From NCBI GenBank assembly GCA_963812155.1, contig CAWETW010000003.1, forward strand, positions 928,001 through 992,000: a stretch of 64,000 nt of DNA, written 5' to 3'. Of the stretch, positions 30,862-47,619 are shown piece by piece (positions within the stretch are counted from its first letter, which is position 1; each line of letters opens with the position of its first letter). Source of the DNA: Vulcanimicrobiota bacterium. Lineage in GTDB: Bacteria > Vulcanimicrobiota > Vulcanimicrobiia > Vulcanimicrobiales > Vulcanimicrobiaceae. The notes beneath the pieces are model-generated. The model did no database searches, had not been told where the DNA came from, and saw only the letters and a list, made by a program, of their open reading frames with translations. A program made the translations under genes and the position numbers.

Positions 30862-31974
30862 ATGGCTGCAAGGACGGTCGGAGTTTCTCCGGTCGCGGTA
30901 ACGGGTTTCGAAGGGCTCCATCGATCGCGAAAAAAGCGCATCGAGACGCTTCTTCGGCGTTTGATTGGGCTCGTAAACGGCAAGGGCTGGGCCCTCGGTC
31001 TGTTCGACGTCGACGGCGACCTCGTCGATTACGACGTTTCGCAATCGGGAATTGGCGGGCGCTTGGCTCTCTCGCTCCTCTGCAAGGTGCCTTTTCCGGT
31101 CACTCAGGGGCCGGTCGTGCTGCAAGCCGGCGTAGTGCCGGGCGAAAACGAGCCGTGGGTGATCGGCGTTGCGACGTCTGCAGGCACCGGCCGCTCTTTT
31201 GCGTGGATCGTGCAACTGTCTTTACCTCCCGAGCCGGCTCCCGCCGAACTCGCCGACGAACTTCAGCGGCTTACGCACGAGATCGCACTCCTAATTACCG
31301 ACGCGCCGAGTCACAACGGCGAACGGCCGCGGCCGCTCGCGCGAAACGGCTTTCACGGGTTCTACCTGTTGGATCCGGAATTCCGCGTGGAGCGCGCGTG
31401 GCATACCCGCGAACCTCTATCGTGCGACTTTGCCGACCTGATCGAACCGCGCGACCATCGACTGCCTACCGTCGTCGAGCGTGCAGTGCGCCGCCTTACG
31501 GCATCCTGGAATTTCCTGAGCATCGGGGCTTGCGCGACCGGAGTCGCCTATCCGCTTCCCGATCTCATGCTGAAAGTCGTACCTATGTCTGCGATCGGGC
31601 CCGACGTCTACATCGGCGTGTTCGCGGAACAATGCGTCCCTACGCACGCGATCGAGCGTGCCGCAGCGACGTTCCGCATCTCGTCTCGCGAACGCGAAGT
31701 ACTGCACGCGTTGCTCGACGGCAACTCCATCGCCGAGATCGCCGCGACCCTCAATTTGGCCGAATCGACCGTGAACGACCACATTGCCCGCATGATATCG
31801 AAAACCAACGCGCGCAATCGAATTGAAATGGCTGCGATGCTGCTGGGTTGGCCGGACGTTGCGGAGCGCAACGCTAGCGCACCACGGAACGGACGCCCCG
31901 CCAGGTCGCGCGTACGGGTTGCGTGGCGCTATAAAATCGCCACGACGCCCGCAGGGCCCGAACCGGTCGGCTAG
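30862..31974 (+). CDS. LuxR-type HTH regulator with an unassigned N-terminal sensor region
   Basis: ISSREREVL..LLDG.SIAEIAATLNLAESTVNDHI.RM..K.NARNR. Confidence 0.82.
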   Translation: MAARTVGVSPVAVTGFEGLHRSRKKRIETLLRRLIGLVNGKGWALGLFDVDGDLVDYDVSQSGIGGRLALSLLCKVPFPVTQGPVVLQAGVVPGENEPWVIGVATSAGTGRSFAWIVQLSLPPEPAPAELADELQRLTHEIALLITDAPSHNGERPRPLARNGFHGFYLLDPEFRVERAWHTREPLSCDFADLIEPRDHRLPTVVERAVRRLTASWNFLSIGACATGVAYPLPDLMLKVVPMSAIGPDVYIGVFAEQCVPTHAIERAAATFRISSREREVLHALLDGNSIAEIAATLNLAESTVNDHIARMISKTNARNRIEMAAMLLGWPDVAERNASAPRNGRPARSRVRVAWRYKIATTPAGPEPVG

Positions 31975-32201
31975 AGCGTTAGCGCCGCCGGCGCAGATGA
32001 CAAGTTTTGACTAGGTGCGCGACGCCTGCCTTACTGCAAACGCCGCGTAAGCCATGCGAAGACCCAGGACTACGGGACCAAAAGACTCACGGGAAACCCG
32101 GGTTGTGGCGCAGCCGGCAATAGTGTCAGACTAGTTGGAGACCCGCACGACAAGCCTATCGCGGCGTCTACACTGCTTAGCAGCCGGGTGGTTTCTCTCA
32201 G

Positions 32202-32867
32202 ATGGAGTTTCTCAACAGAATGTCTGTATCAACCGCTGTATCAACCGCTGTATCAACCTTACCGCTTCGCGTGCTCGTTATCGAGAAGCAACTGCTTTTC
32301 GCCAAGGCCGTGGCTGCGGTGCTGTCGGCCGACCCGGATATCAAAGTCGTGGGTATCGCGAGCGGTCGTGATTCGGACGTTCCCAAAGATGTAGACATCG
32401 TCGTTATCGATATCGACACCGAAGAAATCGATGACGTGGTCGAGCACTATAAGGCTCGGGCCCCTGGGGCCCGCATTTGCGCGCTATCGGCCCATACCCA
32501 GGGCGAACTCATGCAGCATTGTTTGAGCGCGGGTGCCGACGCCTACATCGTAAAGGACTCATCGCTTCAAGAGCTCGTCACCGCCATAAAGACGATCGGC
32601 GAGGGCGCCAGCTACGTCGATCCGCGAGTCGCTGCATCGCTTCTGCGGCGCCGCGGTCCGTCCAACCGCTCGACGAATGAATTGTCTCCGCGCGAGCGCG
32701 AAATCATTCGTCTGATTGCCCAGGGCTTATCGAATCGAGACATCGGCCGGCGTCTGGTTCTATCGGAGAAGACGATCAAGAACCACGTAAGCCATATCTT
32801 TTCGAAGATTCATTGCACCGCGCGTTCGCAAGCGGCCGTTCACGCGATCAGGATCGGCCTCGCCTGA
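32202..32867 (+). CDS. NarL/FixJ-family response regulator (orphan; atypical receiver)
   Basis: Receiver (DIVVID, LSA, GADAYIVK) plus HTH LSPREREI...GLSNRDIG..L.LSEKTIKNHVS.IFSK. Confidence 0.92.
   Translation: MEFLNRMSVSTAVSTAVSTLPLRVLVIEKQLLFAKAVAAVLSADPDIKVVGIASGRDSDVPKDVDIVVIDIDTEEIDDVVEHYKARAPGARICALSAHTQGELMQHCLSAGADAYIVKDSSLQELVTAIKTIGEGASYVDPRVAASLLRRRGPSNRSTNELSPREREIIRLIAQGLSNRDIGRRLVLSEKTIKNHVSHIFSKIHCTARSQAAVHAIRIGLA
32224..32258 (+). repeat. 12-bp tandem repeat (CTGTATCAACCG x2.9), in frame, encoding VSTA repeats
   Basis: Directly visible: CTGTATCAACCG CTGTATCAACCG CTGTATCAACC. Confidence 0.9.
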
Positions 32868-34282: not shown

Positions 34283-34438
34283 GACGTTCATCATAACGGC
34301 CGCTCGGCATCGCCGGCGAGAGGCCGCGGGACCATCTTGTAGTCGAACGGCTCACATTTCCGACCGGGACCTTCGGTCGGTGAATCATGGTTCGGTTTCA
34401 CGTTGGCCGAAGGCGGTTCCGAGAGTATAATCGGCCCG

Positions 34439-35956
34439 GTGACTTCAGCAAGCCGAATACCCGCAGTGAAAACGAATCGCCTTTCGATCGCCTGGATGGT
34501 GCTTGGGTTGAACCTCGTCATCACGGTTCCGCTTGCGGGCGTACTGAACATCTGGCAAGACGAAGCGTATACGCTGGAAACGACGAGCCGCGGTATCGGC
34601 TACGCGTTTGCGCAAGCCATAGGTTTCGAGCAAAACGCTCCCCTGTATTTCGTGGTCATGTCGATATGGCGGCACGCCGGCGACGGGATCTTTCTCTTGC
34701 GCCTTTTTTCGGTGCTTTGCATCGCGGGGACGGTCTTGCTTCTTCCGGGACTCGCGCGCAGGTACGTCCCTCAGGTGGACGGCGTCCTTGTCGCCGCAGT
34801 CGTCGCCTGCAACCCTTTCGTCGTTTGGGCGGCGGTCGAACTACGCGTCTACGCGTTGGTCGTGTTGATCTCGGCACTGCTGCTGCGGACGTTTTTCGAT
34901 GCCTTCATGGAGGAACATCCCGGTAAGGGGGCCGCGATTGCCTACGCCGTGTGCGTCGCCGGCGCCCTCTATACGCAGTATTATCTGGCGTTTATCGTTG
35001 CAGCACAGGGCGCAACGCTCTTGTTTTACAACCGGCGCGCGATACTGAGGTACGCGCTAGCGGGGGCGGCGGCCGCGCTCGCGTTCGTGCCGATGCTCGC
35101 GATCGTTCCGGGCCAGGTGCAGAATTTTAAAGGCATCTTCGCGCCGCCGTCGATCGCTCAGACGTGTATCACCCTCACCGGCATCGTGTTGCGGTACGTG
35201 CTGCCGCTGCCGATCTTGCATGCGAAGAATGCCTACGTAGTGTTGGTAGTCGTTGCGATTCTGGCAGCGGCCTTTGCGCGACCGTCGTTGAAAGCGATCG
35301 GAAGGAACCCAATCGTCGCCATGACGGCGTTTGCCTTTGCGTTTTTCGCCGTCGGTACGTATCTGTCGGGCGTACACGTCTTGGATCGCCACGCCGCCTC
35401 GCTCTACGTGCCCGCCACGCTTTCGATCTTTGCCGTTCTTGCGACCGTGCGCTTCGCGAACGGACGGCGCGCCGTGTTGGTGTGTTCGGCTTTGGTCATG
35501 GTCCTATCGCTGGTGACGCTCGTGGAAACCTATCGGCACCTTGCCAAGCCCGGCGACTGGGCGCGCGTCGCCGAGTATCTCCAAACTCACGAACGAAACG
35601 GCGAACCCATCGCCGTCTTCGAAGCCGAGAACGCCCTGCCGCTTGCCTACTATTACAAAGGGGCCAACCGGATCGTCCCGATACCTCACGGCGTGGATTT
35701 TCGCCGGTACGACGTTAGTCGGTTTGTGGTCGAGAATGAGGCGGAACTTCAATCGACGGTGCCGAGGGCAAGCCGGCTCTGGCTCGTGACGTCCGGCGAA
35801 TGCGCCTCCGCAAACGTACGGTTCGGCTGTAACCGGCTCGAGGAGTTCGTCGCCCAGCGTTATCGGATCGGCGCCGACCGGCAGTTCTATGGGACCCGAG
35901 TTCGCCTGATCGAGGCGATCGGGAGGCGCACGGACCACCGCCCCCTAAAAAAATAG
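34439..35956 (+). CDS. PMT/ArnT-like (GT39/GT83) GT-C glycosyltransferase
   Basis: IWQDEAYT, PLYF, LRLFSV, NPF......ELR.YAL and YTQYY; C-terminal soluble domain; GTG start 7 nt after TATAAT. Confidence 0.85.
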   Translation: MTSASRIPAVKTNRLSIAWMVLGLNLVITVPLAGVLNIWQDEAYTLETTSRGIGYAFAQAIGFEQNAPLYFVVMSIWRHAGDGIFLLRLFSVLCIAGTVLLLPGLARRYVPQVDGVLVAAVVACNPFVVWAAVELRVYALVVLISALLLRTFFDAFMEEHPGKGAAIAYAVCVAGALYTQYYLAFIVAAQGATLLFYNRRAILRYALAGAAAALAFVPMLAIVPGQVQNFKGIFAPPSIAQTCITLTGIVLRYVLPLPILHAKNAYVVLVVVAILAAAFARPSLKAIGRNPIVAMTAFAFAFFAVGTYLSGVHVLDRHAASLYVPATLSIFAVLATVRFANGRRAVLVCSALVMVLSLVTLVETYRHLAKPGDWARVAEYLQTHERNGEPIAVFEAENALPLAYYYKGANRIVPIPHGVDFRRYDVSRFVVENEAELQSTVPRASRLWLVTSGECASANVRFGCNRLEEFVAQRYRIGADRQFYGTRVRLIEAIGRRTDHRPLKK

Positions 35957-36003
35957 GCCCTTAGCGCTAGAATATTCGCGCTATTAGGAGTAAGCTGGTT
36001 TCG

Positions 36004-36023
36004 CCTGGTCAATAGGTACCAGG
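36004..36023. promoter_or_regulatory. 20-bp dyad CCTGGT-N8-ACCAGG upstream of the small peptide ORF
   Basis: Perfect 6-bp inverted arms ending 20 nt before the GTG at 36044. Confidence 0.4.
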
Positions 36024-36043
36024 TCCTTTTAGTTGCGGGAAAG

Positions 36044-36196
36044 GTGAGTTCGGTGGCGTTTTTATTCGCGGTTATCCTATTATTTACAAACATGCACCCG
36101 GCCGATACGCCGGGAGGCCCGCTCGATACGCCGGGCGGACCAATCGCCCACGCGACGGCGCCCGTTGGACCGGGAGCGTCAAGGCATCTGCATTAG
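36044..36196 (+). CDS. Small putative secreted peptide (50 aa) MSSVAFLFAVILLFTNMHPADTPGGPLDTPGGPIAHATAPVGPGASRHLH
   Basis: Hand translation; below the ORF-track cutoff; purine-rich GGGAAAG before GTG; hydrophobic core; DTPGGP twice with synonymous differences (GGA GGC CCG vs GGC GGA CCA). Confidence 0.65.
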   Translation: MSSVAFLFAVILLFTNMHPADTPGGPLDTPGGPIAHATAPVGPGASRHLH

Positions 36197-36326
36197 CGCG
36201 ACGATGTCGCTGGGTCTTTACGTTGCTCTGAAAAGGACCCCCGCTTCTCGGGTGTAACTAGCGCACCTTAACTTCGAGTGCGATCCGCGGCGCCGTTATG
36301 CATCGTGGTCAGGAGCAGTTTGCCAC

Positions 36327-37799
36327 TTGGGACCACGCGAGTTATTCAGTACGGGTGAGCTGTCCGCATGCGTTCGCGCTACCGCTCGGGCTACGTCTAC
36401 GCACGACCGAGTCCTACTTGTTCGCGCGCTGATGCGTCTGGACCGGCATCGCGAGGCACTTGAAGCGATCGCCGACACGCGCACGACGACGCTCGAGGAA
36501 GAAGCCTTTTTCCGAGCCTTAGAGGCATCGTGCCACGCCTTTCTCGGATCGGTGAATCTCGCGGCCCGGACGCTGCTCGGCATCGGGACTTACGCCTATG
36601 GCCTGGACACGCAGTACGAGATCGCCCACGCGCGCATGCTTACTTCCTGGGTCCAAGGCTCACCGGACTCGATGGAAGCCGCGCTGCGCGACGTCGACGT
36701 AAGTTCGGCGCCGCACCTTTACGGTCACTGGCTGTTCTCGCTCTCCTGGGTCGCATCGTTGCGGGGTGAATACCTCGAACAACTGCAGCTTCTCGAAGAG
36801 GCGGCCACACACGTCGCCGGCGTCCCCGAAGCGCAGGACATCAGCCTGCTGGCCAATGCGACGCGATCCATGATCCACTTGGTACGCGAAATTTCCGCGA
36901 AGCGAACGCTCGATTTTGCGATAAAGATGGCCGAATCGATCCCCTGGACGCACGATCTCGAAGTGGAACGGTTTCTAACGTTCCGCGGCCTCGCGTGGGC
37001 ACACGCACTGCGCGGCGAACACGAACGCGCCTTTCACTATGCATATTTCGCTCGCGATATCGCGCCCTCGGTAATGTGGATCACCGCCTCCTACGCAGAC
37101 CAAGCCTATCTTGCGAGAATGGCCGGCGAGAATTCGAGCGCCGATGCGCTCCTGCGCCACGCCGTGGCCTGCGCGCGCGAAACCGATTGGTCAACGATGG
37201 GCGAAGAGCGCGTGGCACTGCTGAACCTGATCGAACTCCTTTCCGACCAAGACGTGGAGACTGGAAAGGCGCTGCTCGCAATCTACGATGGGATCCCGAT
37301 GCGGCTGTCGTCACGCTTCGCACTTTCGCGCGATTGCCGGCTCCGTGCGATGGAAGAGTACGCGCGCGGTACTATTCTCGCCGTCTCCGGCGATCAAAAT
37401 TCCGCGATCGATCTCTTGATTAGCGCTTATTCGACGTTCCAATCGATTCACTACGCATGGCGGGCGGCCGCCGCGGCCCTGCGGCTCCATGCGATTACCG
37501 ACGATTCTTCTTGGATGCTGCGCGCTCGCGACGCGGTCGAGGCGTTTCCGGAGAGCTCGGTCGCGGATCAAATTCGCAAGACCGCATCGGTTGCCGAAGA
37601 CGAGCGCATTGCCTCGCTCACTCCGGCGCAGCGGCGGGTGTTCGGGCTCATCTGCGAAGGTCTCACCGACAAGCAGGTGGCTCAAACCCTGGGCATCTCT
37701 CCCGAGACGGCCAAAAACCACGCCGCCCGCGTTCGGGCTGCGTTTGGAGTTCACTCCCGAGCCGCGCTCATTGCCGCCGTTCACCGCGAGGCGGTCTAA
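36327..37799 (+). CDS. LuxR-type HTH regulator with a long alpha-helical (TPR-like) N-terminal region
   Basis: AGGAG upstream; Ala/Leu-rich helical segments; C-terminal LTPAQRRVF.LICEGLTDKQVAQTLGISPETAKNH..RV...FGVHSRAAL. Confidence 0.85.
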   Translation: MGPRELFSTGELSACVRATARATSTHDRVLLVRALMRLDRHREALEAIADTRTTTLEEEAFFRALEASCHAFLGSVNLAARTLLGIGTYAYGLDTQYEIAHARMLTSWVQGSPDSMEAALRDVDVSSAPHLYGHWLFSLSWVASLRGEYLEQLQLLEEAATHVAGVPEAQDISLLANATRSMIHLVREISAKRTLDFAIKMAESIPWTHDLEVERFLTFRGLAWAHALRGEHERAFHYAYFARDIAPSVMWITASYADQAYLARMAGENSSADALLRHAVACARETDWSTMGEERVALLNLIELLSDQDVETGKALLAIYDGIPMRLSSRFALSRDCRLRAMEEYARGTILAVSGDQNSAIDLLISAYSTFQSIHYAWRAAAAALRLHAITDDSSWMLRARDAVEAFPESSVADQIRKTASVAEDERIASLTPAQRRVFGLICEGLTDKQVAQTLGISPETAKNHAARVRAAFGVHSRAALIAAVHREAV

Positions 37800-37906
37800 G
37801 CAGGCTTCGCCTGCCCTTTCGCCCCCTAGCCCGAAGGACTCCCGGACCAGAGGTGCTGCGCCTGCCGGGACTTCTGGTTGGCGCGGCGTCGCGTTACCAT
37901 CGAACC

Positions 37907-38818
37907 ATGGGCCGAGCTCTCGCCATCGCTACCTTTTCGCTGCTGTGCGCTATCGGCGCGCAGGCGGCGTTTGCCGGCGGCGCCGCTGCCGCAGTTGCCT
38001 CTCAAACGGTCATTCACCCCGGCGATCAGCTTGGCGTCCTCGTTTTCGGGGATCAATCCCTTACGCAAAACGTCATGGTGCTTTCAGACGGAACGATCGA
38101 GTTTCCGCTGGTGGGACGCCTCGCGGTCGCTGGAAAAACTCCGACCGCGGCAGCGACACTGCTCGCGGAGCGGCTGGCCCGCTACGTGCGTCATCCCGTC
38201 ATTACTATTTCGATCGCCCAACTCGGCCAGCCCAACGTGCTCGTTCTCGGCGAAGTGAAATCGCCGGGCAAGTATCAGCTTCGCTCGGAAGCAAAGCTCA
38301 CCGATGCAATCGCGGCGGCCGGCGGCATCGCCGATAGCAACGGTGCCTTTCCGGAAGCGCGCGTTGCCGATGCGACGGGTAAGGTGACGCTCGTTTCTCT
38401 CCAGAGTCTTCTTCAACGCGGCGATACCTCGCTCGACATACCGCTTGCGGAGGGTTCGGTCGTATACGTGCCCGGTCCGATACGCTTTACCGTCAGCGTT
38501 GCGGGCGCCGTCGATCATCCGGGCGACGTTCAAGTGAACGAAGGCGACCGTCTTTCGATGGTGATCGCCAAAGCCGGAAACAGCCAAAACGCCCAGGCCG
38601 ACCTCAACCACATTCACCTGATTCGCATGGGACCAGACGGCAAACAAACGACCACAGAGGTCAACCTCTACCTCGTCCTCAAGGGCGCCGACCCGAGCGC
38701 GGACGTCGCGCTGGAGAAGGGTGACGTCGTCTACGTGCCCCAGGGCGTTCGACACTCGGATATATTCTCTGGGATCGGCAGCGGCCTACTCTACGTGCTC
38801 ACTCACTTCATCCCGTAG
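37907..38818 (+). CDS. Polysaccharide export protein (Wza/Poly_export plus SLBB domains)
   Basis: Signal peptide; IHPGDQL.V.VFG, DGTI.FPLVG...AGKT, V.VLGEV.SPG.Y, DAIAAAGG and GDVVYVP. Confidence 0.9.
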   Translation: MGRALAIATFSLLCAIGAQAAFAGGAAAAVASQTVIHPGDQLGVLVFGDQSLTQNVMVLSDGTIEFPLVGRLAVAGKTPTAAATLLAERLARYVRHPVITISIAQLGQPNVLVLGEVKSPGKYQLRSEAKLTDAIAAAGGIADSNGAFPEARVADATGKVTLVSLQSLLQRGDTSLDIPLAEGSVVYVPGPIRFTVSVAGAVDHPGDVQVNEGDRLSMVIAKAGNSQNAQADLNHIHLIRMGPDGKQTTTEVNLYLVLKGADPSADVALEKGDVVYVPQGVRHSDIFSGIGSGLLYVLTHFIP

Positions 38819-39356: not shown

Positions 39357-40931
39357 CTAGTTGCCGAGCATGACGCGGGCGGCGTTCCATCCGGAGGCGC
39401 CCATGACGCCGCCGCCGGGATGCGCCGCGGCGCCGCACATAAACAAACCTTTCACCGGCGTTGCGTAGCTCGCGAATCCCGGTACCGGGCGGAACATAAA
39501 GAGTTGGTGCAGCGGCATCGCGCCCTGGAAGATGCTGCCGCCGGTGAGTCCGAACGTTTCCTCCAGATCGAGCGGCGTCAGAATTTGGCGATCGATGACG
39601 GACGCTTTGAAACCGGGCGCATATTGCTCTACGATGTCGAAGCAGCGGTCGGCGTATTCGTTGCGCAACGCATCCGTCCAGCCGCCGTTGGGCGCGTATG
39701 GCGCATACTGCGTAAACATCGACATGAGATGCTTGCCGGGCGGCGCGACGGTCGGGTCGAGCGATGACGGCATCGTGCATTCGACGACCGGCTGCCGTGA
39801 AATGTTCCCGTACTTTGCGTCGTCGTAGGCGCGTTCGATGAAGTCCTGATCCGGGCAGAGATGCACGGTCCCGAAGTGCTGGGGTCCGGGTTCGTGACCG
39901 GGCAGCGCAGTAAAACTCGGCAGCCGCTCCAGCGCGACGTTGATCTTGCACGAGGCGCTGCTATACGAAATGCGCTCGACGGCATCGTTAAACGCCGGCG
40001 GGAGCGTCGAAGGATCGAGCATGTTCTGAAACGTGAGCCGGCAATCCACCCCCGACGCAACGCGCTTGGCGGAAAACTCGTCGCCGTTGGTCAGAACAAC
40101 CCCGGTGACTGCGCCGTTTTTCGTGAGAATGCGCGCGACCTCGGATTCCGTGCGGATTTCGGCGCCGAGGTCGGTTGCGGCGCGTGCGAGCGCCTGCGTC
40201 AAGCCGCCCATGCCGCCTTTGACGTAGCTCCAAACGCCGCGCTTCCCGTTCGTCTCGCCCATGACGTGGTGGAACAACACGTACGCCGTGCCGGGCATCG
40301 ACGGCGCCATGAACGCGCCGATGATCGCATCGGTGGCGATTGTGCCCTTCAACTCTTCCGACTCGAACCAGCGATCGAGAATCGGACGCGCGGCGCCGGT
40401 GAGCACTTCGATCGCCTCACCCATTGCGGGGCCGAGCTTCTGCAATGCTCTGCCCATCTTGCCCATCTGGAGCAGTTGAGGAATCGACGGCCGCAGCAAG
40501 TTCGGCGGCACTTGGGTGAGCGTCGGCTCGACGACCGATGCAACGCGCTCCAGCATCGCTTCGTACTGCGGATAGCGCTCCGCATCTCGCTTACTGAACT
40601 TGGCGATCTCTTCGACGTCTTGGTGCGTGCCGGTGCCGAGAATGAGATAGCGGCCGTCGAGGAAGGGCGAGAACGACGCCGGATTGCGTTCGATCGGCTC
40701 GAATCCGTAGTCGCGCAGGCGCAAATCGGCGATGATCTCGGGCCGGAACAGACTGTTGACGTAGGCGGCCGTCGAGACTTTGTAGCCCGGCCACGTCTCT
40801 TCGGAGACGCAGGCGCCGCCGACGACGTAGCGCCGTTCCAGCACGAGCACCTTCCATTTGGCACGCGCGAGATAGCAGGCCGTCACGAGCCCGTTATGTC
40901 CGCCACCAACGATGATCGCATCGTAGGTCAT
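39357..40931 (-). CDS. Phytoene-dehydrogenase-like FAD oxidoreductase (PYROXD2-like, COG1233)
   Basis: YDAIIVGGGHNGLV, ERR..VGGA, GGMG and TP..GLF.CGA.AHPGGGVMGASG. Confidence 0.9.
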   Translation of the reverse strand: MTYDAIIVGGGHNGLVTACYLARAKWKVLVLERRYVVGGACVSEETWPGYKVSTAAYVNSLFRPEIIADLRLRDYGFEPIERNPASFSPFLDGRYLILGTGTHQDVEEIAKFSKRDAERYPQYEAMLERVASVVEPTLTQVPPNLLRPSIPQLLQMGKMGRALQKLGPAMGEAIEVLTGAARPILDRWFESEELKGTIATDAIIGAFMAPSMPGTAYVLFHHVMGETNGKRGVWSYVKGGMGGLTQALARAATDLGAEIRTESEVARILTKNGAVTGVVLTNGDEFSAKRVASGVDCRLTFQNMLDPSTLPPAFNDAVERISYSSASCKINVALERLPSFTALPGHEPGPQHFGTVHLCPDQDFIERAYDDAKYGNISRQPVVECTMPSSLDPTVAPPGKHLMSMFTQYAPYAPNGGWTDALRNEYADRCFDIVEQYAPGFKASVIDRQILTPLDLEETFGLTGGSIFQGAMPLHQLFMFRPVPGFASYATPVKGLFMCGAAAHPGGGVMGASGWNAARVMLGN

Positions 40932-43900
40932 AGTTTCACCTGTACGCTGAAGTATGCGTTGAACGGTTGCATGAGGGAGCTGGAAAGGTCGTTGTACGTT
41001 CCGAAGTACGGTTCGTAGGGATAGCGCAGGAACGTCTGCACGTTGTCGTGCGGATTGTAGGCGTTTCCGACCGGAGGCGTGCTGGGACCGCCGACCAGGT
41101 TGGTGTAGAGGCAGACGTTGTTGCCTTGCAGGTAGGTGAAGCCGGTCGTTTGTCCCCCGAAGCAGGTCTGCAGCAGATTCGCGAGCGTCACCGTCAGCCG
41201 GATGCGCGGCGTCGCGTCGTAGGTCATTTGAAGATGCCCGAGGAGTTGCGCCGGTTCCCGGAAAGCGCCGAGCGCATCGAACTGGCCGGTGTACGGATCG
41301 GGAACCGAAAGCGCCGCCGACGAACAGTCGTGCGCGTTGTAGGGCAGACCGCCGGACGAGCCATACGGATAGCGCGGATCGCCTCCGGTCGAGCCCGGCA
41401 ATGCGGTGCAGCCGGCTGCGGCCGGATCGATGCCGGGCGTCGTCAGCGGGGCGCCGTAGCGGTTGCCCGCCGAAAACTGAAACGACGGGGTGATGGCAAA
41501 CTTGTCGTGCTTGTAGTTGAGGATAAGGGTCGCGACGTATGGGTAGTTGTAGGCGTTGACGCCGGAGCCGACCGGTCCCGGAAAGACCGAGTAGGGAAGG
41601 TACGCCGCCGACGGATCGTAGAGCGAGAAGACCGGTGAGTTCCAGTAGGGATTGGCGATGTCGCCTTTGGCGCACGACGGATCCGGCGCGCCGCTCACCG
41701 GAACGTAACAGGGAGCCGCATACGAGTTCGGGCCTTGCGTCGTGTAACCGCAGACGAGTTGACCGAACTGCTTCTTTCCGTATTGCGACCCGCCGGGAGC
41801 GCAGGCCTTAGTATAGGCGTTGTACTGCGCGATGCCGGTATTGATCGGCGTGAGCAGCGTCGTTCCGTTCTGCAGCGTGCCGTATTTGAAGGTCGCATAC
41901 GTGTACGCAAACGAGAGCTGCCCGGAGATGCCGTTGCGGTTGAAGTCGCCTTTGTTGAACTGGAACTCGAAGCCGCGAGACGTCTGGTAGCCGGCGTTCA
42001 AGCCGGAGGTGATGCCGGTCGTATAGTTGATGTAGAAGTTCGAGACTTCGGCCTGCGTTTGGCGCAGGAAGGGCGACAGCTTGAACGACATGTCGGTGCC
42101 CTTGAAGTGGTGCTCGATCGAGAAGTCGCTGTTGAACGAAATCGAGGGTGCCACCGCGTGGCCCGGCGAGTTGAAACCGAGCGCGTAGAACTCGGTGAGC
42201 GTGTCGGGGAGATTTGCTTCGAGCCCGTTATACTGCTCGTACGCCGAACTCGGCTGTTCGTTGTATTTTCCGTAACTGGCGCGCAAAACCGTGTCGGGGT
42301 TGACGGTGTACGTCGCGCCGATGCGCGGCTGCACGATGTTATAGTCGAAGGCCGCGGGCGTGTTGTCGAGATGCGCGTTGACGTACTGCTTGCCGAGCTT
42401 CGGACACGGCAGCTGCGAGTTCGTGCTCCAGTCGCCGCGCGGGAGAAGCGCGGTCCGGTCGACGAGGGTCAGCGTCTGCGTATCGAAGCACGTGTCTTGG
42501 TTGAACGCATCGAACCAGAAGTTCCGGGCGGCGCCCGTGTCGGTATTCGAACCGACGAAACTGTAGTTGTCGACGCGTACGCCGGCGTTGACGGTAAGCT
42601 TGTCGTTCGGGCGCCACTCGTCGGTGATCGAGTAGCCGGCGAAGTGCGGCGTGACCGTATTGTTGAGGCCGTAGTCGCCGTTTTCGGCGACGTAGTACGC
42701 GCACGGACCGTTGCCGCAGCGTAAACCGCTGACGTTGGGCTGGCCGCTGCCGTTGAGGCCGAGATACGAGGGCAGCCGGTTGGCGCCGAACGAGACGCCG
42801 CTCCCGCCGCCGTCGTAGCAGGTGGTCGCAAACGTGCCGTTGCCGCCCCGCTTGATGCGATAGCAGGTGCCGCCGTAGATGTCGTTCGGGTTGACGAGCT
42901 GCGCGAACTCGTTGCCGTAGAAGCGGCCGAATGCGAACATCTGCTCGTTGTAAATCCGGGCGCCGGTTGCCGTGGTGTAGCTTCCTTCGGCCTGCAGCAG
43001 GTTTTGCGAGTTGATCTGATCGGTGAACGAGGCGCTGATGCCGCGCGTGTGGTTGTTGATTTCGTAGTCGCCGCTGTCGTAGTACGCGTACGACTGCAGC
43101 GACATCATCGGGCCGTTTTCGATCCAGTCGGAGTAGTAGGTGTAACCGTAGAGCCGCAGGTACGCGCTGGAACTGAAGTTTTTCTGGTATTGCAGCTTGA
43201 CGATCGCCTGGCCGTTGTAACCGCGGTCGCGCTGAAAATTCGGATCGGGGATCGAGCCTTGGAATGGATGGGACGGCGACGACGGATAGAGGTAGGGAGA
43301 GATCAGCGACTGGTAGTTGGCCGGGAGCAGCGTGCCCGTGGGACCCTTGTACTGATACGTGTCGAGATAGTAGGGTGGAAACGATCCGGTCGATGAGATC
43401 CAGTTTTGCAAGCCTTCGTCGGTCACCGAACTGTTAAAGGTCGTGAAAATCTCGTCGTTGTCGTAGAGCAGCTGCACGTCGTCGCGCAGCGAGTCGTGTT
43501 TGTGCGGGATCGCGATGTGGAAGTTCGCGACGAAGGTGCGGTCGGCGATGTTGACGGGATTGAGCGTCCCGAATCCGATCGGCCCGAGCACCCAGCCGGT
43601 CGTTCCGAGCGGCCCCACGTTCGGCTTTCCGTTGGTGAAGCACGACGGCAGCGCTTGGATCGATGTCTTGCCCGGACATTGCGCCACCTGCTGGCCGAAC
43701 TCGTTGGTGTAGGCCGCGCCCCCGAACTGATCGACGAAGACGTGATCTTGATTGTAGCCGTTGAACCCGACGTAATAGGAGAAGAGCCGGTCGGGCGTCG
43801 CGCCGCCGGTCTCCACGCTGAGGCTGTGGTAGAAGGTCGGCGAACCCGCCGCGAGATCTGCTTGCGCGTAGCCGGGGAACGTGCCGGTTTTGATGACCTG

Positions 43901-44635
43901 GTTGATGAAGCCGGCGAGACCTTGCGCTTCGGCGCCGGCGGGCGTCGCACCGGTGTAGACTTGCAACTCGAGCTGGCCGAGCGACGAAATCGATCCTGAC
44001 GGGTAGTTGTCGAAGGCGCGATTGATCGGAATGCCGTCGAACTCGTAGCCGACTTCGTAGGAGTCGCCGCCGCGAACGTGCACCGCCTGCAAGTATCCGG
44101 CTTGATTCGGCGGCACGTACGCGCCCGGTACGCTCGCGATGGCCGAGTAGGCGCTGTTGAGACTGCCGCCGCCGCCGAGCGCCGAGAGCCGCGCCTGCTG
44201 CGCCGCGTTGATCGAATAGATGTCGGCGGTCGTGCCGGGGCGCACCAAACTCGACGCCGAGCGCGACGAGACTTGCGCGATCGTCTTGAGCGCTTTGTGC
44301 ATGGCAAACGCCAGCGTCTGCTGCGCGTCGGCGAGCACCGCGATGCCCGGGTACGACACCGGGTCGTAGCCCGACTTTTCGAGCGACGCCGTATACTCGT
44401 CGGGAGCGAGCGAGACAAAATGAAAGTGGCCGCCGGCGTCGGTGAGCGTGCTCGCGCTCTGCGACGGACTGGCGACCGTGACGCGTACGCCGGCGAGCGG
44501 CGCCGACGTTCCGGCTTCGGTCACCGTGCCGCCGAGGCCGCCGGTCGTGCCGGCCGGCGCAAGCGAAGGGACGATGACGGCGCCCGCACACGCGAACGCG
44601 GCGAGAGCGGCGACGATGCGGCGATGAATGCTCAT
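40928..44635 (-). CDS. TonB-dependent outer-membrane receptor with an N-terminal carboxypeptidase-regulatory-like domain
   Basis: Signal peptide; GTTGG..GTV...; plug VRGG...E.GYE.DGIP.N; beta-strand-rich body (NAGVR.D, QPRIGATY); C-terminal YFSVQVKL. Confidence 0.85.
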   Translation of the reverse strand: MSIHRRIVAALAAFACAGAVIVPSLAPAGTTGGLGGTVTEAGTSAPLAGVRVTVASPSQSASTLTDAGGHFHFVSLAPDEYTASLEKSGYDPVSYPGIAVLADAQQTLAFAMHKALKTIAQVSSRSASSLVRPGTTADIYSINAAQQARLSALGGGGSLNSAYSAIASVPGAYVPPNQAGYLQAVHVRGGDSYEVGYEFDGIPINRAFDNYPSGSISSLGQLELQVYTGATPAGAEAQGLAGFINQVIKTGTFPGYAQADLAAGSPTFYHSLSVETGGATPDRLFSYYVGFNGYNQDHVFVDQFGGAAYTNEFGQQVAQCPGKTSIQALPSCFTNGKPNVGPLGTTGWVLGPIGFGTLNPVNIADRTFVANFHIAIPHKHDSLRDDVQLLYDNDEIFTTFNSSVTDEGLQNWISSTGSFPPYYLDTYQYKGPTGTLLPANYQSLISPYLYPSSPSHPFQGSIPDPNFQRDRGYNGQAIVKLQYQKNFSSSAYLRLYGYTYYSDWIENGPMMSLQSYAYYDSGDYEINNHTRGISASFTDQINSQNLLQAEGSYTTATGARIYNEQMFAFGRFYGNEFAQLVNPNDIYGGTCYRIKRGGNGTFATTCYDGGGSGVSFGANRLPSYLGLNGSGQPNVSGLRCGNGPCAYYVAENGDYGLNNTVTPHFAGYSITDEWRPNDKLTVNAGVRVDNYSFVGSNTDTGAARNFWFDAFNQDTCFDTQTLTLVDRTALLPRGDWSTNSQLPCPKLGKQYVNAHLDNTPAAFDYNIVQPRIGATYTVNPDTVLRASYGKYNEQPSSAYEQYNGLEANLPDTLTEFYALGFNSPGHAVAPSISFNSDFSIEHHFKGTDMSFKLSPFLRQTQAEVSNFYINYTTGITSGLNAGYQTSRGFEFQFNKGDFNRNGISGQLSFAYTYATFKYGTLQNGTTLLTPINTGIAQYNAYTKACAPGGSQYGKKQFGQLVCGYTTQGPNSYAAPCYVPVSGAPDPSCAKGDIANPYWNSPVFSLYDPSAAYLPYSVFPGPVGSGVNAYNYPYVATLILNYKHDKFAITPSFQFSAGNRYGAPLTTPGIDPAAAGCTALPGSTGGDPRYPYGSSGGLPYNAHDCSSAALSVPDPYTGQFDALGAFREPAQLLGHLQMTYDATPRIRLTVTLANLLQTCFGGQTTGFTYLQGNNVCLYTNLVGGPSTPPVGNAYNPHDNVQTFLRYPYEPYFGTYNDLSSSLMQPFNAYFSVQVKL

Positions 44636-47619
44636 GTTTGGTAAGCCTCGATGAAGGTATGGTAAGCGGACATGGCGCGGTTGAACTGGTCGCCGATCTC
44701 GGCGGCTTCGCGAAGATGCGGCGGAAGCGGAGGCCCTTGTGAGAGGTTCACGACGCCCAAGAGAATCGTCAAGCGCTCGCGCAGCGCGTCCGGTTTCCAC
44801 TGGTCGTCTTCGGAGTTCACGATACCCGACGTCAACTGTGCGTAGACGGCGTCGAACGCGTGCCGCTGCGACGCGTGCACGCGTCCACGCAGCGCGTCGA
44901 GCCGGTTGAGCGCGGTATCGACCTGCGAGAGTTCGCGATCGAGCGCCGCGATGAAATCGTAGCGCGCAACGTACTGGGCTTGCGTCCAGTGCGCGCGCGG
45001 ATCGGGGCGAACTTCAAGCGTTCGTTCGGACGCGCGGTCGCCGATGCGAAGCCGTACCGTATAGGTGCCGGGTACGACCTGCGGCGCGCTCCAGGCCTTG
45101 TTCCAATCGCGCGCGGCGTTCCACGGCACGATGGGTTCGGCGAGCAAATCCCAGGACGCGCGATCGATGCCGGCGTCTCCGGGTGCATCGAGATGCCGCA
45201 CGACCGCGCCGGAAACGTCGAGCAGGTCGATCGTGACGCCGGGCGTCTCGCGCGGCAAATAGTACGACAGCAGCGCGCCGTAGTCGGGATCGCTTCCGCT
45301 GAAGACGCCCGCCGGCACGCAGCATTCGTCGTCGTGCGTTCCGTATTGGCCGGACCACCAGATATACCACGCGTACGCCGGACGCGGCGCGAAGAGCGCC
45401 GGAACGCCGGCGTCGCGCGCGGCGGTAAACCCTTCCAGCGGCGTGAGATCGTCGAGGATGTAGATTCCGCGTCCGTGCGTGCCGGCGATGAGATCGACGG
45501 CCTCGGGCTGCACGCGCAGATCGCGGACCGCGGTCGGCGGCATGTTCAAACGGAGACTGCGCCAGGCCGCGCCGCGGTCGAACGTCACGAACGCGCCCTG
45601 CTCCAAGCCCGCGTACAGCACGTCGGCGTTGCGGGGATCTTCGCGAAGAACGTGCGCGGGCTGGTCGGGCGGCAGGCCCGCGACGACCGAACGCCACGAC
45701 GTGCCCCCGTCATCGGTTGCGAGCACGTAGGGCGTGCGATCGCCCATCGTTTGGCGATTGACGACTGCGTACGCGCGGTCGATCGAGACACGCGACGGCT
45801 CGACGGTCTCGACGCGCCCCCATTCCGGGACGAACGACGGCGTAACGTTGCGCCAGTGCGCTCCGCCGTCGATGGTGCGCCAAATCAAGCCGTCGTCACT
45901 GCCCACCCAAATCGTCCTTGCATCGATCGGCGACGGCGCGATGTCGAGCAGCGTGTCGTAGAACTCCGCGCCCGAAACGTCGGTGTTGATCGAGCCGCCC
46001 GCAACTTGCTGTTTGCTCGGATCGTTGCGCGTGAGATCCGGACTCATCGCAGTCCACGTACGCCCGCGGTCGCGCGTTTCGAAGAGCACGTTCCCGCCGA
46101 AGAACGCGACCCCAGGCTCGAGCCGCGAGAACGCCAGCGGCGATTCCCAGTTGAAGCGATACGGCAAACCCGCCAGCGGACGTCCGTTGGTGTCGCGCAC
46201 GTAGGGCGAGATGTCGTAGTTCTGGCGCGACGCGAGGTCGAAGATGCCCAGCTGTCCGTTGAGTTCGTTGATGCCGACGTTCCAGACCGATTGCGGATCG
46301 CCGGGCTCAGGCCAGACGGCCACGCCGTCGGCATCGTTGGCGACGTCCCGCCAGTCCCGTTCCGTCAAGCCGAGCGGGCTGAGCGAGAGATTCGGCGCGC
46401 AGTAGGAGTCGTCGTCCTGCATCGCCGCGCAGACGTGATAGGGATTCTGGTCGTCGAAGCCCACGTGATAGATCTGCGCGATATCCACGTTGAAGCGCCA
46501 GTCCCAGGTCGCGCCGCCGTCGATCGAGATCGGCGCGCCGCCGTCGTCGGCTTCGATGATGCGCCGCCCGTCGCGCGAGATCCAAAAGCCGTGATGGTCT
46601 TGGTGGACGGCGGTCGAGATATCGTCGAACGTCTTGCCGCCGTCGTGCGTAACGAGCAAATCTTCCGAAGCGAAGAAGACGCGATTGGGATCGCGCGGAT
46701 CGACCGCAAGACGGCTGAAATAAAATGGGCGTTGATCGATGATCGTGTCGCGCGACATCATCCGCCAATGCGCGCCGGCATCTTCGGATCGCCAGAGCAA
46801 TCCTTCGCGCGATTGAATCAGCGCGTAGACCCGCCGCGGATCGCTCGGGGCCACGGCGATGCCGATGCGTCCCATTTCACCCGAAGGCAGGCCGTTGCCG
46901 CGCAGGCGATGCCAGGTCGTGCCGCCGTCGGTCGACTTGTAAATGCCGTCGTCGGATCCTCCGCTGGTGAAGGTCCACGGTTTGCGCCGGAACTGCCAGA
47001 CGCCGGCATAGACGACGCGCGGATCGTGGGCGTTCCAGGCGAGGTCGGAGACGCCGCTGCGCGGCCCCGCGTAAAGCGTGCGCCGCCACGTTCGTCCGAA
47101 ATCGGTCGTGCGGTAGACCCCGCGGTCGCCGGAGTCTTTGAATGGATTGCCGAGCGCTCCGGCGATGACCGCACCGGGATCGTGCGGGTTGATCAGCAGC
47201 GCGGAGACGGCATAGGAATCGTTCAATCCGCGCCGGCTCCAATGCACGCCGCCGTCACGCGTAAGCCAGATGCCGTCGCCGTAGGACGCGTCGTTGCGAG
47301 GATTCGGCTCGCCGGTTCCGGCCCATACGACCTCTTGGTTCGAGGGAGCGATGGCGATTGCGCCGATCGCGCCGACCGCGTCGCGCGACCACACGTCGCG
47401 CCACGTCAATCCGCCGTCGGTCGTCTTGAAAACGCCGCCGCCTGCTGCACCGAAATAGTACAGGGAAGGATTCGCGTCGGTACCGGCTACACCGGAGGTG
47501 CGCCCGCCGGCGAGTGCCGGACCGATGTTGCGCCAATCGAGCCCAATCGCGTCGCTGCCTTGTGCTGGTGAGGTCGCACATGCCACGAACAGCGCGCAAA
47601 CAAAAGAGAAGAGGCGCAC
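44632..47619 (-). CDS. VPS10/BNR-repeat beta-propeller glycosyl-hydrolase-like secreted protein
   Basis: WRNIGP...GGR, multiple Asp-boxes (S/TxDGGxTW), HQDHH.FWI and AGTHGRG..ILDD; start approximate. Confidence 0.88.
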   Translation of the reverse strand: MRLFSFVCALFVACATSPAQGSDAIGLDWRNIGPALAGGRTSGVAGTDANPSLYYFGAAGGGVFKTTDGGLTWRDVWSRDAVGAIGAIAIAPSNQEVVWAGTGEPNPRNDASYGDGIWLTRDGGVHWSRRGLNDSYAVSALLINPHDPGAVIAGALGNPFKDSGDRGVYRTTDFGRTWRRTLYAGPRSGVSDLAWNAHDPRVVYAGVWQFRRKPWTFTSGGSDDGIYKSTDGGTTWHRLRGNGLPSGEMGRIGIAVAPSDPRRVYALIQSREGLLWRSEDAGAHWRMMSRDTIIDQRPFYFSRLAVDPRDPNRVFFASEDLLVTHDGGKTFDDISTAVHQDHHGFWISRDGRRIIEADDGGAPISIDGGATWDWRFNVDIAQIYHVGFDDQNPYHVCAAMQDDDSYCAPNLSLSPLGLTERDWRDVANDADGVAVWPEPGDPQSVWNVGINELNGQLGIFDLASRQNYDISPYVRDTNGRPLAGLPYRFNWESPLAFSRLEPGVAFFGGNVLFETRDRGRTWTAMSPDLTRNDPSKQQVAGGSINTDVSGAEFYDTLLDIAPSPIDARTIWVGSDDGLIWRTIDGGAHWRNVTPSFVPEWGRVETVEPSRVSIDRAYAVVNRQTMGDRTPYVLATDDGGTSWRSVVAGLPPDQPAHVLREDPRNADVLYAGLEQGAFVTFDRGAAWRSLRLNMPPTAVRDLRVQPEAVDLIAGTHGRGIYILDDLTPLEGFTAARDAGVPALFAPRPAYAWYIWWSGQYGTHDDECCVPAGVFSGSDPDYGALLSYYLPRETPGVTIDLLDVSGAVVRHLDAPGDAGIDRASWDLLAEPIVPWNAARDWNKAWSAPQVVPGTYTVRLRIGDRASERTLEVRPDPRAHWTQAQYVARYDFIAALDRELSQVDTALNRLDALRGRVHASQRHAFDAVYAQLTSGIVNSEDDQWKPDALRERLTILLGVVNLSQGPPLPPHLREAAEIGDQFNRAMSAYHTFIEAYQT

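Follow-up and report, generated by a model that had tools for sequence, protein, structure and literature searches.

Comparative and structural analysis of a stretch of 64,000 nucleotides from a Vulcanimicrobiota genome (hereafter the window) points to a peptide-regulator module, in which a small precursor gene with a conserved DTPGG core is followed by the gene of a helical-repeat LuxR-type regulator. We lean, by a small measure, towards reading the product of the small gene as an exported and re-imported peptide signal with autoregulation, RRNPP-like in its working and different in architecture. Judged by codon conservation, the peptide gene is under selection for DTPGG; a palindrome is placed just behind the predicted peptide promoter throughout the family and moves with the peptide gene; and the receptor is, by confident modelling, a TPR-like superhelix joined to a LuxR HTH.

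The peptide gene (36053..36196, plus strand) encodes a 47-aa precursor composed of a hydrophobic leader, a P-x pair, two DTPGGP cores and a variable tail. After a gap of 130 bp on the same strand follows the regulator gene (36327..37799), whose 490-aa product starts at a TTG behind AGGAG. On the 5' side lies a membrane glycosyltransferase of PMT_2/GT-C-like type (34403..35956, plus strand; Pfam E 1.9e-5, just under the cut-off), a glycosyltransferase being the usual 5' neighbor of the module, with PMT_2 seen in two relatives. Further upstream is a Wzy-type EPS cluster with a WbaP/WcaJ-type transferase, a Wzc kinase, GT4 enzymes and an O-antigen-ligase-like gene. On the 3' side lies a Wza-type polysaccharide export protein (37907..38818, plus strand; Poly_export and SLBB by Pfam), a candidate target. 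The layout given in the preliminary description, namely the small ORF, the DTPGGP pair, the 130-bp gap, the LuxR HTH, the dyad, the Wza gene and the EPS cluster, thus holds in its coordinates. At 0.59–0.62, the G+C content of the module is close to the window's 0.63 and gives no hint of a foreign island acquired recently. The host belongs to the Eremiobacterota/Vulcanimicrobiota and not to the Bacillota, and its diderm nature, assumed earlier, is borne out by BamA and LpxC encoded in the genome. Separately, a 4-kb contig labelled Rudaea (L002) carries the receptor at 95% identity together with wza and is probably mis-binned rather than a case of transfer.

The ORF first placed at 36044-36196 proved to be a real gene under selection, with its start shifted to the second GTG at 36053. 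This start is assigned because a Shine-Dalgarno-like GAAAGG (36039..36044, plus strand) stands 8 nt ahead of it, similar purine boxes preceding the starts of relatives, and because it leaves 17 codons to the motif, as in relatives (15–20). In locus L005 a 1-nt insertion between the two GTGs puts the first out of frame. A start at 36044, or farther upstream in the 80-codon open frame, was rejected.

Small hydrophobic ORFs adjoin the homologous regulators with great regularity, and the ORF is conserved across the close homologs. Among 36 loci at 56–100% receptor identity, one lacks upstream DNA and the other 35 all have an upstream [DN]TPGG ORF, a set that takes in the window's own locus and duplicates and in which one ORF is cut by a contig end. 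In seven of nine further loci at 50–58% identity the [DN]TPGG peptide adjoins the receptor; in the remaining two its gene lies 6–9 kb away. The spacing from ORF to receptor is 61–172 nt across the close loci. As a chance control, 15 of 1286 long ORFs of the same genome were preceded by a small ORF with a hydrophobic leader and a D-x-x-GG-P-like motif, which is looser than the [DN]TPGG used for the close homologs. No Pfam family matched the peptide, and no second DTPGG precursor was found in the window's genome.

The earlier suggestion of selection on the peptide is upheld by 38 distinct ORFs, in which the first and second positions of the five core codons are identical in 37–38 of the 38 sequences and the third position carries 1.0–1.9 bits; the invariance of the core amino acids is partly built in by the motif search, the freedom of the third positions is not. 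In the window the two DTPGGP copies (36104-36121 and 36125-36142, period 7) differ at three third-codon positions only. The tandem arrangement is present as described and is not a defining feature, most relatives being single-copy: doubling occurs only in the window's group, and tripling only in L041, L045 and L159. The 38 precursors measure 41–64 aa, and the core is nearly invariant over the whole DTPGG clade, leaving little pherotype diversity. The window precursor has a leader of about 12 uncharged hydrophobic residues, then P-x before the cores. The missing basic n-region had been taken to leave the start site and export route uncertain; the absence is real, and it is a clade-wide property rather than a start-site error, since 37 of the 38 leaders have neither Lys nor Arg. 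The leader also has no A-x-A site, and P-x before the core is no signal peptidase I site.

The dyad noticed before the peptide gene (36004-36023; perfect 6-bp arms, 8-nt spacer) is likewise a real element and a family-wide site. Its core is the operator-like palindrome TGGT-N8-ACCA at 36006..36021. Of the family consensus, TRGT-N8-ACYA, a perfect copy lies no more than 90 nt from the peptide start in 15 of the 37 close loci and 21 of the 33 distant ones, against a mean of 0.2 and a maximum of 2 in shuffled controls; the consensus was read from the same loci on which it was counted. With a matrix built without the window's clade, the window site ranks second of 2,956,863 genome positions, and with one built from distant loci only it ranks ninth of the same number. 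Upstream of the operator stands a TAnnnT hexamer, its end 9 nt away in 13 of 26 close loci and 17 nt away in 14 of 27 distant ones; in the window this is TAAGCT (35991..35996, plus strand), a putative -10 element of the peptide promoter by its shared spacing. Because a -10-like hexamer precedes it at a fixed distance, the putative operator is placed over or just behind the likely transcription start, a position that fits a repressor. The site is degenerate or absent in some groups (L011, L015-L020, L029), and in L030, L033 and L034 about 10 nt separate the peptide ORF from the gene upstream, leaving no promoter region.

Other identities for the dyad were considered. As an SOS (LexA) box it is rejected, the matrix giving 1–7 bits near lexA and recA against 13–15 at the window site; upstream of lexA the window genome has CGAAC-N4-GTTTG, which we take to be the Gram-positive type of SOS box. 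A generic sigma-70 scan gave no promoter in 35800-38000 and called the dyad a weak terminator-like stem (one found, 2.3 expected); a terminator is unlikely, the family site being mostly a palindrome with 4-bp arms just behind a -10 box. No strong operator copy was detected between receptor and wza, where the best scores were negative (mean -3.5 vs -6.4 in shuffles, maximum -4.25), nor between peptide and receptor (-1.1 vs -1.5 in shuffles). A genome-wide operator scan revealed no clear regulon, the other high-scoring sites being scattered and several of them intragenic. One further site (G000:C3:117023-117160) combines an operator-like sequence, GAAAGG and an ORF of 30 codons, possibly another small regulatory peptide; the genes after it look by eye like a GntR-like regulator and an ABC ATPase.

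Natural variants separate the parts of the module. A peptide-profile search, partly circular, had hits in 32 of the 301 family genomes, with E 1e-5 or better in 27; of these 27, 25 have a receptor at 50% identity or more, G430 also has a receptor, and in G407 the receptor seems to be split. In G153 and G075 the peptide gene lies 6–9 kb downstream of the receptor with an operator of its own, and the interval holds an adenylation-carrier protein, a P450, a PPTase and a GT4 (families scanned mainly in G153). In each of the two 14–16-kb regions the peptide and the receptor are each preceded by a perfect TAGT-N8-ACTA site, the only two in the region, compared with five in the whole 2.96-Mb window genome. 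Displaced peptide genes that keep their own operator imply that the peptide works in trans and that the operator belongs to the module.

These displaced copies bear directly on one further reading of the small ORF, as a RiPP precursor or as a leader or arrest peptide that acts in cis on translation of the receptor. Its Pro/Gly-rich conserved motif, its co-oriented upstream position and the adenylation/P450 cluster adjoining some copies would suit such a role, which we nevertheless rate as very improbable: cis action is excluded in G153 and G075, the motif stands mid-ORF with 61–172 nt between ORF and receptor, and no modifying enzyme is a constant neighbor. On these comparisons the cis-acting leader reading appears largely refuted. 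Two more arrangements were noted among the variants. A cluster of adenylation-carrier, P450, PPTase, GNAT and GT4 genes bracketed by two operator copies (L154:1683-11197, L155, L036) is a candidate peptide-controlled small-molecule pathway, and G430 has two near-identical GT-peptide-receptor-wza loci on different contigs (L156, L157), reflecting either duplication or strain mixture (contamination 8%).

Precursors differ most in how they might leave the cell. In a sister clade of three genomes (L100-L102, ~38% identity) the DTPGG core and the operator go with a 34-aa peptide, acidic and Pro-rich, that is without a hydrophobic leader (L100:1266-1370; also L101 and L102); export is therefore not universal. 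There the leaderless gene sits between a divergent secretin-domain gene and the receptor, with a large secreted protein after the receptor. Among 56 distant receptor ORFs (~30–39%), 33 have a co-oriented small precursor with a core of D-x-x-GG(G)-x-P type, the filter having flagged 34 before L068 was removed as a wrong-strand reading, and the control being the same 15 of 1286 long ORFs; many of these precursors have a basic n-region, a lipobox and up to ten repeats. The other 23 comprise two with leaderless DTPGG peptides, two with precursors missed by the filter, four with divergent small lipoprotein-like ORFs, seven receptors in tandem arrays and eight without a visible motif-bearing precursor, one of these being the second family member of the window's genome. 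The subgroup with divergent ORFs (L068, L073, L074, L081) has them in place of co-oriented precursors, and three of them show a C-x-(x-x)-SHGG motif after the signal. In one distant clade (L058-L095) the operator and the precursor start are separated by a small hairpin with GAAAGGC at its end, which may gate translation.

This diversity of leaders (lipoprotein signal, uncharged hydrophobic, none) is one point in favor of a reading in which the DTPGG core binds the receptor inside the cell and the precursor is never released as a signal. The precursor would then stay in the cytoplasm or at the inner membrane face, where its hydrophobic N-terminus could tether or titrate the regulator as a feedback timer or envelope-state sensor, the clade having lost the signal of ancestors whose peptide was exported. 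Three genomes with leaderless DTPGG peptides under the same operator, a leader without a basic n-region or signal peptidase site and the near-invariance of the core all speak for it. Against it, several lineages of the clade have repeated their cores independently (two copies in the window's group; three each in L041, L045 and L159), as is usual where a processed signal is to be made in larger yield; export signals are clear in distant relatives, and at about 12 residues the hydrophobic stretch is short if it is to anchor the peptide stably in the membrane. On balance, we regard such an intracellular partner as unlikely, though the strongest of the alternatives to an exported signal.

The description of the receptor as a TPR-like solenoid with a C-terminal LuxR HTH was confirmed. 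An AlphaFold2 (AF2) model from 144 sequences is all helical and confident (pLDDT 94.9, pTM 0.87), with the TPR-like superhelix at about residues 1–425 and the LuxR/GerE HTH at 430–482, an assignment to which Pfam, the structure search and the PDB profile search also contributed. The wide structure search returned the MalT sensor domain 1hz4 at the top (Z 24.6, rmsd 4.7, 327 aligned), then an APC subunit (Z 20.9) and phage Rap (Z 20.4, rmsd 4.7, 325 aligned), with RapI (Z 18.8), AimR (Z 18.1) and NprR (Z 17.6) at lower ranks; helical repeats score high Z easily, so this ranking fixes the fold class and not ancestry or ligand. The NarL HTH matched residues 426–489, Foldseek returned generic TPR proteins, and the family profile matched consensus TPR proteins in the PDB at E 1e-35, with no RRNPP protein among the 60 best PDB sequence-profile matches. 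Pfam TPR models miss the window receptor, and each hits at most seven of 80 family members, while GerE/LuxR HTH is recognized in 79 of the 80. No receiver domain was found.

Among the columns conserved in peptide-bearing receptors, close and distant alike, are R187, E188, W207, R220, D258, W288, E293-E294-R295, D336, R338, W378 and R379, together with S-P-x-T-x-x-N in the HTH helix. They need not be ligand contacts, because most are also kept in peptide-less array receptors. No Asn is conserved family-wide in the TPR part, N300 being confined to the close clade. Co-variation of peptide and receptor, proposed earlier as a check, was sought between GGP and GG[M/L/I] cores and yielded no co-varying residue; L013, an independent GGM case, has GGP-type residues at five of six candidate sites and a third residue at the remaining one. 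Co-folding of receptor residues 1–425 with precursor residues 13–47, both entered as alignments and run without controls, scored 0.02 (mark 0.32) and counts neither way.

The top fold match raises the question of whether the regulator is a MalT-like sensor of a small molecule or oligosaccharide, with a sugar or EPS intermediate as its ligand and the peptide, secreted or at the surface, as a regulated output only. The domain order is that of the MalT sensor and DNA-binding domain, the MalT sensor domain binds sugar, the context is that of EPS genes, and family members without a peptide exist. We consider this improbable all the same: peptide cores track receptor clades, the peptide gene remains next to that of the receptor amid unrelated neighbors (tuf, Na+/H+ antiporter, helicase, adenylation enzyme), a conserved 5-residue core in a variable chain of 41–64 aa fits a ligand better than an effector, and there is no NOD/ATPase. 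Pfam and NCBIfam gave no NTPase family in the receptor, and the confident model contains no strand. TPR_MalT is not among the Pfam families hit by the 80 members. In a quick tree of 89 receptors, which omits four duplicate loci and L002 and takes in only some distant loci, all DTPGG cores fall within one starred clade of 48 rows; this shows association and not co-evolution, because kin share labels.

Within the phylum, the receptor is found mostly in the host's own family. Matches at E 1e-15 or better occur in 241 of 296 other genomes of that family and in four of 104 from the other families of the phylum, tallies that include five genomes marked unpublished (G213, G238, G246, G248, G359), which support no other result given here. 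A profile search of the class found it in 24 of 29 genomes inside the family and one of 32 outside. In the ESM Atlas, Vulcanimicrobiota clusters come first, followed by Actinomycetota TPR-LuxR clusters as look-alikes, and a search of viral contigs with a single protein gave no relative. The window's genome has a second member (G000:C3:576581-578100, minus strand, ~30% identity) with no precursor found beside it. L048 and L049 (G169:C5, G115:C6) are tandem arrays of 2–5 peptide-less sister-clade receptors, some broken by stops, with a priA-like gene (by eye) before and a beta-lactamase-fold gene after.

The link to polysaccharide export is one of position. wza stands directly 3' of the receptor in 21 of the 32 loci scanned for neighbors, after exclusion of 12 near-duplicates and L002; other loci adjoin tuf, a Na+/H+ antiporter, a Wzc-like gene, GT4, a helicase or an adenylation cluster. 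A -10-like box lies 6–9 nt before the wza start, in the window TACCAT (37895..37900, plus strand) 6 nt before the ATG, and a conserved GGAC (37836..37839, plus strand) is found at -71 to -75 in 18 of the 22 loci with a called wza start (six loci have none). With this -10-like box, wza probably has its own leaderless promoter. Control of EPS by the module is plausible from gene position alone. Two further LuxR-HTH regulators lie within the EPS cluster (30862-31974 and 32202-32867), one with an unassigned sensor region and one a NarL-type response regulator, with a weak operator-like site between their genes at 31997; either could be the factor for the GGAC element. Also near the module is a 1290-aa protein (40928-44800), by eye a large outer-membrane receptor-like protein with an N-terminal carboxypeptidase-regulatory-like domain.

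In the exported-signal reading, a one-component module would pair a MalT-like TPR sensor and C-terminal LuxR HTH with a 47-aa precursor that reaches the membrane through its uncharged hydrophobic leader. Export would probably resemble that of streptococcal SHP peptides, non-classical and with intramembrane cutting, rather than by signal peptidase I. A core of 6–8 residues (DTPGGP with one flanking residue, in two copies here) would be released, return through an Opp/Dpp-type ABC importer and bind in the TPR groove, where its Asp could pair with one conserved Arg (R187, R220, R295, R338 or R379). A receptor dimer would bind the palindrome, which covers or closely follows the likely transcription start. 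Repression of the peptide promoter by the free receptor is the most likely consequence, and the peptide would lift it, giving positive feedback. Further targets would depend on the locus, being the EPS cluster here and the adenylation-carrier/P450 cluster in G153 and G075. The host genome encodes 13 class-5 solute-binding proteins and M50 proteases; importers and proteases of these kinds are widespread among bacteria and are no specific evidence. Counting against signalling are the leader without a basic n-region or A-x-A, the leaderless sister clade, MalT as top fold match, the want of a family-wide TPR Asn and of co-variation, the little pherotype diversity, the peptide-less receptors and the need for the peptide to cross two membranes or act from the periplasm.

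A wider proposal, tentative and carrying less than even weight with us, is that intracellular peptide quorum sensing arose independently in a diderm lineage, assembled out of a STAND-type TPR sensor and a LuxR HTH after loss of the ATPase, with lipoprotein, uncharged-leader and leaderless precursors under one shared operator, and that in soil Eremiobacterota the DTPGG branch gates EPS export according to cell density. PMC10075063 treats one-component peptide signalling through a cytoplasmic TPR receptor as a trait of the Bacillota. A version from a diderm phylum on a different regulator would, if true, widen this picture and pose the question of how the peptide crosses two membranes. Roughly four in five genomes of a single large soil family contain the module. 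A search of open-licence literature found no paper on this peptide-receptor family. With receptor, 6–8-mer core and 16-bp operator all defined, it is testable without a cultured host, and the displaced, leaderless and peptide-less variants are natural controls.

With LuxR-type AHL receptors and solos the regulator shares the C-terminal LuxR HTH and, possibly, ligand-relieved repression near EPS genes, EsaR being a LuxR-type apo-repressor of EPS. The sensor differs, being a 425-aa all-helical solenoid and not an alpha/beta autoinducer-binding domain, for which Pfam gave no match at E 0.1. MalT and LAL-type STAND activators have the same order of TPR sensor and C-terminal DNA-binding domain (the MalT order as given in PMC6468293) and provide the best structural match, 1hz4; here, in contrast, there is no N-terminal P-loop NOD ATPase, and a palindromic site and an adjacent peptide gene are present.

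The Rgg-SHP systems (Rgg2/Rgg3-SHP2/3) resemble the module in a short hydrophobic precursor outside the classical Sec rule and an Asp-first core with GG. In SHP precursors the N-terminus is rich in Lys and the core C-terminal, and the HTH of Rgg is N-terminal; the present precursor carries its core internally, behind a leader without Lys or Arg. Sections of PMC4162386 describe SHP cores as starting with Asp and ending in GG, and Rgg3 as a repressor released by peptide. In the portion of PMC3763537 dealing with NprX, the cores SKPDIVG and WKPDTLG are internal heptapeptides whose conserved Asp binds Arg126, and RNPP receptors share a conserved Asn (NprR Asn275) that binds the peptide backbone; the present family has no family-wide Asn in the TPR part, N300 being a close-clade residue. 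The likeness of the DTPGG core to NprX and SHP cores in Asp and Gly content is best taken as resemblance only.

RRNPP systems (NprR-NprX, Rap-Phr, AimR-AimP, PlcR-PapR) have in common with the module a small precursor adjoining a 250–500-aa TPR receptor, an internal short core with a conserved Asp (as in NprX), repeated cores and the receptor fold (Z 17.6–20.4). Of the five features by which RRNPP systems are delimited in passages of PMC10075063, namely a propeptide of 10–100 aa, its export by Sec (PptAB for SHP/PrgQ), a receptor of 250–500 aa, TPRs in it and adjacent genes, four are found here (47 aa, 490 aa, TPRs, 130 bp). For the fifth, export, the window leader is hydrophobic without a basic n-region or A-x-A, and distant relatives have lipoprotein-type signals. 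The preliminary description was right in setting the architecture apart: the RRNPP HTH is N-terminal or, in Rap, absent, whereas here it is C-terminal and LuxR-type, in a diderm Eremiobacterota host rather than in Bacillota or on a mobile element, and with an uncharged leader, lipoprotein signals being the form in relatives. Set apart by HTH type and position and by host, the module is thus best described as working like RRNPP without being filed as a member.
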